Shown here in pieces: positions 38,335 through 38,372 of a DNA stretch of 64,000 bases. The stretch is from a virus. Its lineage: Duplodnaviria > Heunggongvirae > Uroviricota > Caudoviricetes. Position 1 is the first letter of the stretch, and each line of letters opens with the position of its first letter. The position numbers and the translations under genes are program-made. The notes beneath the pieces were generated by a model. That model saw nothing but the letters and a program-made list of their open reading frames with translations. It made no database searches and was not told where the DNA came from. Where the stretch lies: the IMG/VR virus record IMGVR_UViG_2799112923_000001; one strand, given 5' to 3'.

Positions 38335-38372
38335 AGCGACCATTGACAACAGTGGTCGCTTTTTGTATATTA
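38335..38372 (+). promoter_or_regulatory. composite terminator-hairpin/promoter module
   Basis: agcgacca-ttgacaaca-gtggtcgct hairpin, TTTTT, TTGACA 38344-49, N17, TATATT 38367-72. Confidence 0.65.

Follow-up and report, generated by a model that had tools for sequence, protein, structure and literature searches.

Candidate terminator-promoter modules nested around the -35 hexamer in a distant T4-like phage

Promoter-early stem-loops (PeSLs) of the T4-like phages RB49 and phi1 combine strong sigma70 promoters with stem-loops and are divided into five subclasses by the position of the stem, one of which overlaps the -35 (Arbiol et al. 2010, PMC2839356). Their promoter and terminator activities were demonstrated by lacZ fusions, and recombination between copies was proposed (PMC2839356). 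PeSLs were subsequently described as 'composite conserved promoter-terminator motifs' across T4-like phages, including T4/PST and KVP40/nt-1 (Comeau et al. 2014, PMC4122927). Here we describe eight hairpin-bearing promoters in a stretch of tailed-phage DNA of 64,000 nt (Caudoviricetes; IMG/VR record IMGVR_UViG_2799112923_000001), the whole of which is called the window. Judged from their sequences, these composite modules are PeSLs in kind (a T4-like genome, sigma70-like hexamers and a stable stem-loop), with a distinct and uniform register in which a full predicted terminator surrounds the -35. The phage itself is assigned, from the replication genes in the window, to a distant T4-like lineage that is known only from metagenomic contigs.

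Hairpin-bearing and plain promoters in the window

An earlier note on this DNA had listed seven sites at which a hairpin, a T-run and a promoter coincide. Readings of every listed site, consensus scans and a purpose-made detector bore out all seven, one of them (40737) as an atypical form, and an eighth module, which the list had missed, was found at 58132. The modules are all intergenic, and the first coordinate of each line below is the start of the hairpin (dG, folding free energy in kcal/mol; SD, Shine-Dalgarno sequence; CM, covariance model described in the next section).

10973..11010, + strand: composite module; hairpin 10973-11003 (14 bp, loop AAA, one G.U), -35 TTGACA 10982-10987, T5, -10 TATATT 11005-11010; dG -16.0, z -6.5; next gene at 11028 with SD
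18684..18722, + strand: composite module; hairpin 18684-18713 (13 bp, loop ACAA), -35 18694-18699, T6, -10 18717-18722; dG -15.3, z -6.5; CM E 1e-4; next gene at 18753
38334..38371, + strand: composite module; hairpin 38334-38361 (12 bp, 6 GC, loop ACAA, one G.U), -35 38343-38348, T5, -10 38366-38371; dG -18.5, z -5.2; between a gp32-like gene and a DHH-family gene (start 38402)
40737..40773, + strand: atypical composite module; hairpin 40737-40764 (11 bp, loop TGACTT), -35-like TTGACT 40747-40752, T5, 15-nt spacer, TATAGT 40768-40773; dG -15.2, z -5.9; upstream of the GH10 gene
50083..50125, + strand: composite module; hairpin 50083-50112 (13 bp, loop GTTG, one G.U), -35 50097-50102, T7, -10 50120-50125; dG -21.0, z -8.0; ATG at 50132, 6 nt past the -10 (predicted leaderless)
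58132..58167, + strand: composite module; hairpin 58132-58155 (10 bp, loop GCAA), -35 TTGGCA 58139-58144, T6, -10 TATATT 58162-58167; dG -12.0, z -5.7; ATG at 58174, 6 nt past the -10 (predicted leaderless)
59947..59985, + strand: composite module; hairpin 59947-59977 (13 bp, AT-rich, 2 GC), -35 59957-59962, T7, -10 59980-59985; dG -10.4, z -4.2; CM E 3e-3
63893..63931, + strand: weaker composite module; hairpin 63893-63921 (12 bp including G.U, 3 GC), -35 63903-63908, T6, -10 63926-63931; CM 20 bits, E 1.2

The module at 38334-38371 reads AAGCGACCATTGACAACAGTGGTCGCTTTTTGTATATT. Each module comprises a stem of 10-14 bp (G.U allowed) with 2-6 GC pairs, a loop of 3-6 nt, a T5-7 run directly 3' of the stem and a -10 hexamer, and one such terminator-promoter cassette measures ca. 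40 nt. The -35, which had been placed in the hairpin loop, does lie within the hairpin but is mostly split between arm and loop: five of the eight modules have TTG as the final three paired bases of the 5' arm and (A/G)CA at the start of the loop, while in module 50083 the -35 occupies the loop and the 3' arm. The distance from TTGACA to TATATT had been given as 16-17 nt. It is exactly 17 nt in seven modules (TTGACA-17-TATATT at six hairpins and TTGGCA-17-TATATT at one); the exception is 40737, with TTGACT, 15 nt and TATAGT, and a 16-nt spacer occurs only at the hairpin-less promoter 9559.

The pattern TTGACA-N15-19-TATATT was matched eight times in the window, always on the + strand, against 0.20 matches expected, and none of 100 shuffles reached eight. 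The strict detector required a perfect stem of at least 7 bp (G.U allowed), a T run of at least 4, a -35 inside the hairpin, a spacer of 16-18 nt and at least 10 of 12 hexamer matches. On the + strand it found seven sites, on the - strand none; 40 Markov-randomised windows averaged 0.075. The seven modules that were folded (all except 63893) gave hairpin dG values of -10.4 to -21.0 kcal/mol and z values of -4.2 to -8.0, and Rfam and tRNA scans of the window yielded no match for the hairpins in curated RNA families. Of the ca. 36 intergenic gaps with a length of 25 nt or more, eight hold a module, and the modules are 1.8-20 kb apart, so that the 'highly regular punctuation' of the earlier note holds for their uniform form but not for their period. 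Where the upstream open reading frame (ORF) is clear, they lie 22-38 nt past a stop codon, and a + strand gene follows; an SD is clear at six modules and absent at 50083 and 58132.

As a word, TTGACA occurs 59 times on the + strand and three times on the - strand of the window. Selection on promoter words was rejected as the explanation, since 38 of the 48 copies within coding sequence are read as xTT GAC Axx, and the asymmetry is due to codon usage.

Three plain promoters were found beside the composite modules:

1289..1317, + strand: plain promoter, TTGACA-17-TATAAT; no hairpin (dG 0.0); A-rich spacer
6305..6333, + strand: plain promoter, TTGACA-17-TATATT; abuts the upstream stop codon; no T-run; weak fold (dG -6.3, z -1.2)
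9559..9586, + strand: plain promoter, TTGACA-16-TATATT; no hairpin (dG -2.1); A-rich spacer

Those at 1289 and 9559 had already been recognised as versions without a hairpin, which the folding energies bear out, whereas 6305 had not been listed. The spacers of all three are A-rich and end in AAAAAC or AATAAC. The T5-7 run that had been claimed for the composite sites is present in all eight hairpin-bearing promoters and in none of the three plain ones; therefore, the T-run appears to be part of the terminator and not a requirement of the promoter. Stand-alone terminators at 3082, 23354, 42666 and 56789 carry no TTGACA/TATATT-type hexamers.

Conservation of the hairpin and of the promoter

Relatives whose gp32 is 84-90% identical keep a module in the spacer between the gp32 and DHH genes, and its stems differ: AAGCGACCATTG...CAGTGGTCGCTT in the window, and AAATCCAC(C/T)ATTG...CA(A/G)TGGTGGATTT, AAACCACTATTGG...CCAATGGTGGTTT or AAAGCCACCATTG...CGATGGTGGTTTT in the relatives. 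Seven distinct versions of this spacer retain the helix (e.g. GCGACC/GGTCGC versus TCCACC/GGTGGA), and a 13-bp helix was recovered when they were analysed with RNAalifold. At a second slot, which follows the exonuclease-like gene (49554-50060), the hairpin, the T-run and TATATT are all present in six of eight relatives with 70-99% identity. The stems at this slot are unrelated among the relatives, and the window differs from relative L031 by two compensatory pairs, with a G.U kept. Gene 58174 has no relatives in IMG/VR, and module 58132 thus had no ortholog comparison.

A covariance model built from the gp32-spacer orthologs only recovered the paralogous modules at 18675, 59938, 40728, 10975, 63884 and 58123. 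In the alignment made with this model (16 distinct sequences), 90.9% of the cells are paired, and double changes are seen in 8 of the 13 pairs. The covariation score was 0.453, compared with 0.166 for shuffles, of which 0 of 500 reached the observed value, and 0.05-0.13 for slid controls.

When any single mismatch was allowed, the imperfections in the stems comprised 13 G.T and one A.C, corresponding to ca. eight independent G.U events versus one. A palindrome that acts as duplex DNA, whether operator or cruciform, would gain G.T and A.C equally, whereas + strand RNA tolerates only G.U. The 13:1 excess of G.U over A.C therefore indicates that the structure acts as + strand RNA. Judged from these alignments, the hairpin is kept as a structure, not as a sequence, across orthologs and paralogs.

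The relatives also retain the promoter elements: TTG in the -35, TA...T in the -10 and a spacer of 17 nt. TTG is invariant in the alignment, although its pairing partner could have permitted change. In two modules, 50083 and 58132, exactly 6 nt separate the -10 from the ATG, and there is no SD (50120-50134 and 58162-58176). In six orthologs of gene 50132 (at loci that include L030, L031, L034, L035 and L036), the start codon lies 6-9 nt past the -10, and an N-terminus M-x-I/L-K/E/Q-x-Y is conserved from that ATG. Since the start codon is pinned at the expected +1, the -10 is presumably in use, and the mRNAs at both modules are probably leaderless.

Proposed mechanism and rival explanations

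We consider it likely that each module is an intrinsic terminator of the upstream gene array nested in a sigma70-type early promoter of the next array. This reading builds on what is directly observed, namely the motifs and their geometry, their excess over chance and restriction to one strand, the selection on pairing and the conserved hexamers; termination, initiation and early timing would be its predicted consequences, with 'early' taken from T4 biology. RNA polymerase (RNAP) arriving from the upstream + strand array would produce a transcript that folds into the 10-14 bp hairpin followed by U5-7 and ends inside the spacer of the next promoter. The same DNA would serve as a near-consensus promoter for host RNAP of the sigma70/SigA type, with (C/G)TATATT as the -10: TTG would end the 5' arm, ACA would lie in the loop, and the 3' arm and T-run would occupy the 17-nt spacer. 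A terminator could fit there because the spacer of a sigma70 promoter is nearly free in sequence; its 17 nt would be made up by a single base of the loop, ca. 11 nt of 3' arm and 4-5 T. Restart ca. 7 nt 3' of the -10 would then provide the next array with its own insulated and strongly initiated mRNA. That one sequence is both an RNA terminator and a DNA promoter of the sigma70 type had been put forward in the earlier note, and the proposal gains support from the covariation, the 13:1 G.U bias, the association of T-run with hairpin, the conservation of the hexamers and the pinned ATG.

It seems rather improbable that the nesting is itself functional, with the RNA released at about -18 to -13 and the polymerase left on the next -10 and start, where it would rebind sigma and reinitiate in place. 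RNAP that stays on the DNA after termination, by one-dimensional diffusion and recycling, is reported in single-molecule work cited in bioRxiv 10.64898/2026.02.12.705533. If such reinitiation occurs here, the modules would be terminate-and-restart stations that give a new 5' end (leaderless at two of them) and retain the polymerase, which would help in the competition for host RNAP.

Several observations weigh against the nested terminator-promoter. An unfitted MAFFT alignment of seven orthologs gave only two compensatory pairs; it puts L013 one column out of register, which inflated the counts of 'broken' pairs, and a model-based alignment was thus used too. The latter, on which the main covariation result is based, was fitted to the model and is structure-biased, and many of its rows are related; the same conservation of pairing is visible by eye in the raw sequences of modules and orthologs. 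The AT-rich stems of 59947 and 63893 (2-3 GC pairs) may terminate poorly. Promoter strength is not uniformly kept, as seen from the weakened hexamers of some orthologs (TTGGAA, TTGTAG and TTGCAG; -10 TATTTT). At 40737, where the spacer is 15 nt, a TAATATATAAAATA box (40783-40796) lies 3' of the hairpin and 5' of the GH10 gene and is invariant in comparison with the 72%-identical relative L006; this conserved downstream TATAAAATA-type box may be the real promoter there.

A palindromic operator acting at the DNA level, as a site for a dimeric repressor or activator or as a cruciform, would reduce the T-run to mere spacer composition. The inverted repeats do overlap the -35, a classic position for a repressor, and the apex CCATTG-ACAA-CA(A/G)TGG recurs in several copies, but the stems outside this apex are unrelated (AGCGACC, TGCAG, AGACCC, GAATGGTAG and AAGAGTA) and define no common operator. 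The compensatory changes keep pairing and not sequence, the G.T over A.C asymmetry is unexpected for duplex DNA, and the T-run is always 3' and absent from the hairpin-less promoters. From the G.U bias, the 3'-only T-run and the unrelated stems, we therefore reject the operator, which is extremely improbable. Terminators without initiation, with the likeness to TTGACA/TATATT arising from AT-rich composition, would agree with the degraded hexamers of some orthologs and with the fact that a T-run followed by AT-rich sequence is common after terminators. This explanation is nevertheless very unlikely: exact TTGACA-17-TATATT at six of eight hairpins compares with ca. 0.08 composite sites by chance, the four stand-alone terminators lack such hexamers, the three plain promoters have similar hexamers and spacing without a hairpin, and across orthologs TTG is invariant and ATG is held 6-9 nt past the -10. 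Nor do we expect the hairpins to be 3'-end stabilisers or processing sites (for exonuclease protection or as RNase targets) that do not terminate. They stand at the 3' ends of arrays, and PeSL stems of RB49 are conserved without U-tracts; the T5-7 directly after every hairpin, however, is a feature of intrinsic termination, with which a stabilising role is compatible.

Some modules belong to longer repeats. The 5' region of four modules contains A-tracts and a TGTAAA-N6-TTTACA palindrome at a fixed 37-nt offset:

10945..10962: palindrome TGTAAACAAAAATTTACA of module 10973, 37 nt from its first base to the -35; belongs to the extended cassette
18657..18674: palindrome of module 18684, same 37-nt offset from the -35; in 91-nt repeat family D3
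59920..59937: palindrome of module 59947, same 37-nt offset from the -35; second copy at 59864-59881
63866..63883: palindrome of module 63893, same 37-nt offset from the -35

The window has seven copies of this palindrome against 0.07 expected, the others being at 1250-1267 and 37249-37266, and it also lies 5' of the plain promoters 1289 and 37273. At the four modules, it falls at ca. -72 to -55 from the predicted start, directly after the upstream stop codon. Unlike the hairpin stems, the palindrome keeps its sequence in diverged relatives (L014, L015, L016 and L035), which suggests a protein-binding or UP-type element. The extended cassette runs from a stop codon through the palindrome (TGTAAAC-A5-TTTACA), an AT-rich stretch and the module to a leader with SD. 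A 91-nt family is found at 18656, 59919 and 63865 (67-80% identity), with a fourth member at 10929 that shares the 5' half (60 nt); the remaining four modules have only a core of ca. 34 nt in common. A different motif, AAGTTCTC-N4-AAACAAATTTA, is seen at 40715-40736 and 50063-50082, just before hairpins 40737 and 50083, neither of which has the palindrome, and AGTTC of this region recurs in relatives at the orthologous slot.

These repeats bear on the explanation that the modules are primarily recombination cassettes, dispersed repeats of ca. 90 nt that serve gene shuffling and mini-circle formation as hypothesised for PeSLs, with transcription secondary. Besides the 91-nt family, cross-matches of 87-105 nt link modules of the window with those of relatives. 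Homology with the 97%-identical relative L014 ends 2 nt past the -10 of module 10973, and the first-gene slot after this module holds nothing in the window, an extra 55-codon ORF in L014 and an unrelated gene of ca. 1 kb in L016. Among the ORFs flanking modules, 7 of 10 have no PHROG family, while module 38334 sits between the core genes gp32 and DHH. Against this, extended similarity is found in only four of the eight modules, the window and L014 differ by three further indels that lie away from modules, and covariation points to selection for RNA pairing, something that recombination would not require. A breakpoint relative to L006 right after module 40737 (at 40783) was rejected, since it was not clean at base resolution. 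We regard recombination as the primary role as possible but not probable. Elsewhere, the closest relative, L017 (JAEEGG010000328.1), has an 800-bp, very AT-rich extra ORF (6837-7640) after gene 39336-40184, i.e. at window position ca. 40180; L006, L007 and L012 also diverge at this junction, a local hotspot away from the modules.

As nested terminator-promoters, the modules would extend PeSL-type cassettes to a very distant, uncultured T4-like lineage (PolB ca. 32% identical to known ones). The current understanding of phage transcription is unchanged; composite promoter-terminator cassettes are already known as PeSLs. What goes beyond the published PeSL work is the comparative evidence that the stem is kept up by compensatory substitution and acts as + strand RNA. 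Each module would be a natural insulator between transcription units, could serve as a compact part in synthetic biology, and offers a defined substrate for asking whether RNAP that terminates on a promoter reinitiates there.

Genomic surroundings and comparison with known systems

DNA-level searches of a phage collection gave no match to the window. Its gp43-like PolB is ca. 32% identical to cyanomyovirus PolB, and it also encodes a gp32-family protein, a gp41-like DnaB helicase, a UvsX-like recombinase, an RnlA/gp63-like ligase, a dCMP deaminase, three DNA methyltransferases (29292-29990, 29987-30727 and 32634-33371) and many ORFans. All real genes are on the + strand and tightly packed. The 601-aa protein of 40824-42629 has a full GH10 (xylanase-type) domain (E 7e-57), an odd cargo for a T4-like phage. 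A 634-aa protein (43299-45203) has a PolyA_pol/CCA-adding nucleotidyltransferase head domain; the tRNA scan found no tRNA gene in the window despite this CCA-adding-type protein. Two genes 30 kb apart (12732-12929 and 42714-42911) share 71-81% DNA identity over their 5' ca. 200 nt and form a paralogous pair.

Short palindromic words are very strongly avoided in the window, which also holds the three methyltransferase genes: TCGA occurs once against 145 expected, GATC 9 times against 148 and AATATT twice against 55, while CAATTG, CATATG, ACTAGT, CTATAG and CTTAAG have 0 copies each (8-24 expected). By these word counts, the avoidance is a restriction-avoidance signature. Many small ORFs have near-identical 3' DNA (…AAAGAAGATTTTGAATGA and variants) and encode protein tails of the form …K-E/G-D-F-E/D; their stop codon and the following start codon overlap as ATGA. 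The C-termini thus seem to be shaped by a cassette for translational coupling, made up of ATGA and a purine-rich stretch that resembles an SD. The ends lie at:

15145-15175, 15474-15504, 17701-17730, 18024-18053, 20898-20933, 21331-21391, 25709-25769 and 31788-31817: AAAGAAGATTTTGAATGA-type ends
32577-32637, 40471-40531, 51258-51293, 58671-58731, 59557-59617, 61906-61942 and 62983-63013: the remaining ends of this type

Promoter-like elements and hairpins also occur in other arrangements.

42637..42694, + strand: promoter-like TTGAAT-17-TATATT (42637-42665), directly followed by a strong 13-bp terminator hairpin (42666-42694) and T7

The predicted start of the 42637 site lies inside the 5' arm of the hairpin, a PeSL-like layout with the stem-loop 3' of the -10. 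At 25994-26024, a GC-rich terminator hairpin, T6 and TATATT repeat the geometry of the composite modules minus the -35. Intergenic (C)TATATT boxes without a -35 and with an AT-rich 5' side (TATATT at 22915, 26019, 30771, 33417, 34740, 42660 and 55953) lie 11-93 nt 5' of start codons, e.g. that of the DnaB-like helicase gene, and may be a second promoter class; the late promoters of Kayvirus, TGTTATATTA, likewise have no -35 (PMC7698491). The TAATATATAAAATA box near module 40737 resembles the T4 late-promoter consensus TATAAATA, and L032, a more distant relative, has TATAAATA after a hairpin at a different orthologous slot.

Apart from the PeSL papers, the literature searches brought up no directly comparable nesting of terminator and promoter. 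Combined terminator-promoters have been described for T7 RNAP class II terminators and E. coli RNAP, and RNAP recycling at combined sites was discussed (bioRxiv 10.64898/2026.02.12.705533). As predicted for the modules here, those sites combine terminator and promoter activity in a single short sequence, but they are hairpin-less, concern a single-subunit polymerase and are serendipitous, not natural nested phage early promoters. The modules resemble canonical intrinsic (Rho-independent) terminators in their stems of 10-14 bp with GC pairs, their loops of 3-6 nt, the U-run that follows at once, a frequent 5' A-tract and their position past a stop codon; unlike in these, the loop and 5' arm must spell a -35, and the U-run is limited to ca. 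5-7 nt before the -10. The early promoters of phage N4 also hold a hairpin-forming inverted repeat within the promoter. They are DNA hairpins of 5-7 bp with a 3-nt loop and a conserved sequence, extruded and read by the virion RNAP, with no sigma70 hexamers and no U-tract. An N4-type hairpin promoter was rejected for the modules, with their stems of 10-14 bp, loops mostly of 4-6 nt, variable stem sequences and consensus sigma70 hexamers.

The closest counterparts are the PeSLs. Like those of RB49/phi1, the modules are intergenic cassettes of a T4-like phage with a near-consensus sigma70 promoter (TTGACA-N17-TATAAT in RB49), an AT-rich upstream region and a stable stem-loop in or beside the promoter. 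Many PeSL copies adjoin ORFans, hyperplastic regions or indels between close relatives, and some are alike over ca. 90-100 nt, enough for homologous exchange; the modules of the window show these traits only in part. In the RB49 PeSLs used in experiments, the stem fills the spacer without a U-tract (TTGACA-GGGGATC-loop-GATCCCC-TATA(A/C)T), and others have the -10 in the loop, whereas the modules here have longer stems around the -35, followed by T5-7. The strict nested detector gave two unconvincing hits in 150 of the 164 kb of RB49 versus seven in this window. Modules are spaced at one per 1.8-20 kb here, while PeSLs occur at nearly every ORF in RB49, and two modules are predicted to be leaderless, unlike RB49 PeSLs. 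The PeSLs of T4/PST and KVP40/nt-1 have a stem consensus of their own lineage (e.g. A3-4G3-loop-C3T3-4), similar to the stems flanked by A-tracts and T-tracts here. Their stem-loop stands just 5' of the promoter, in tandem with it, whereas in the modules of the window it is nested within.

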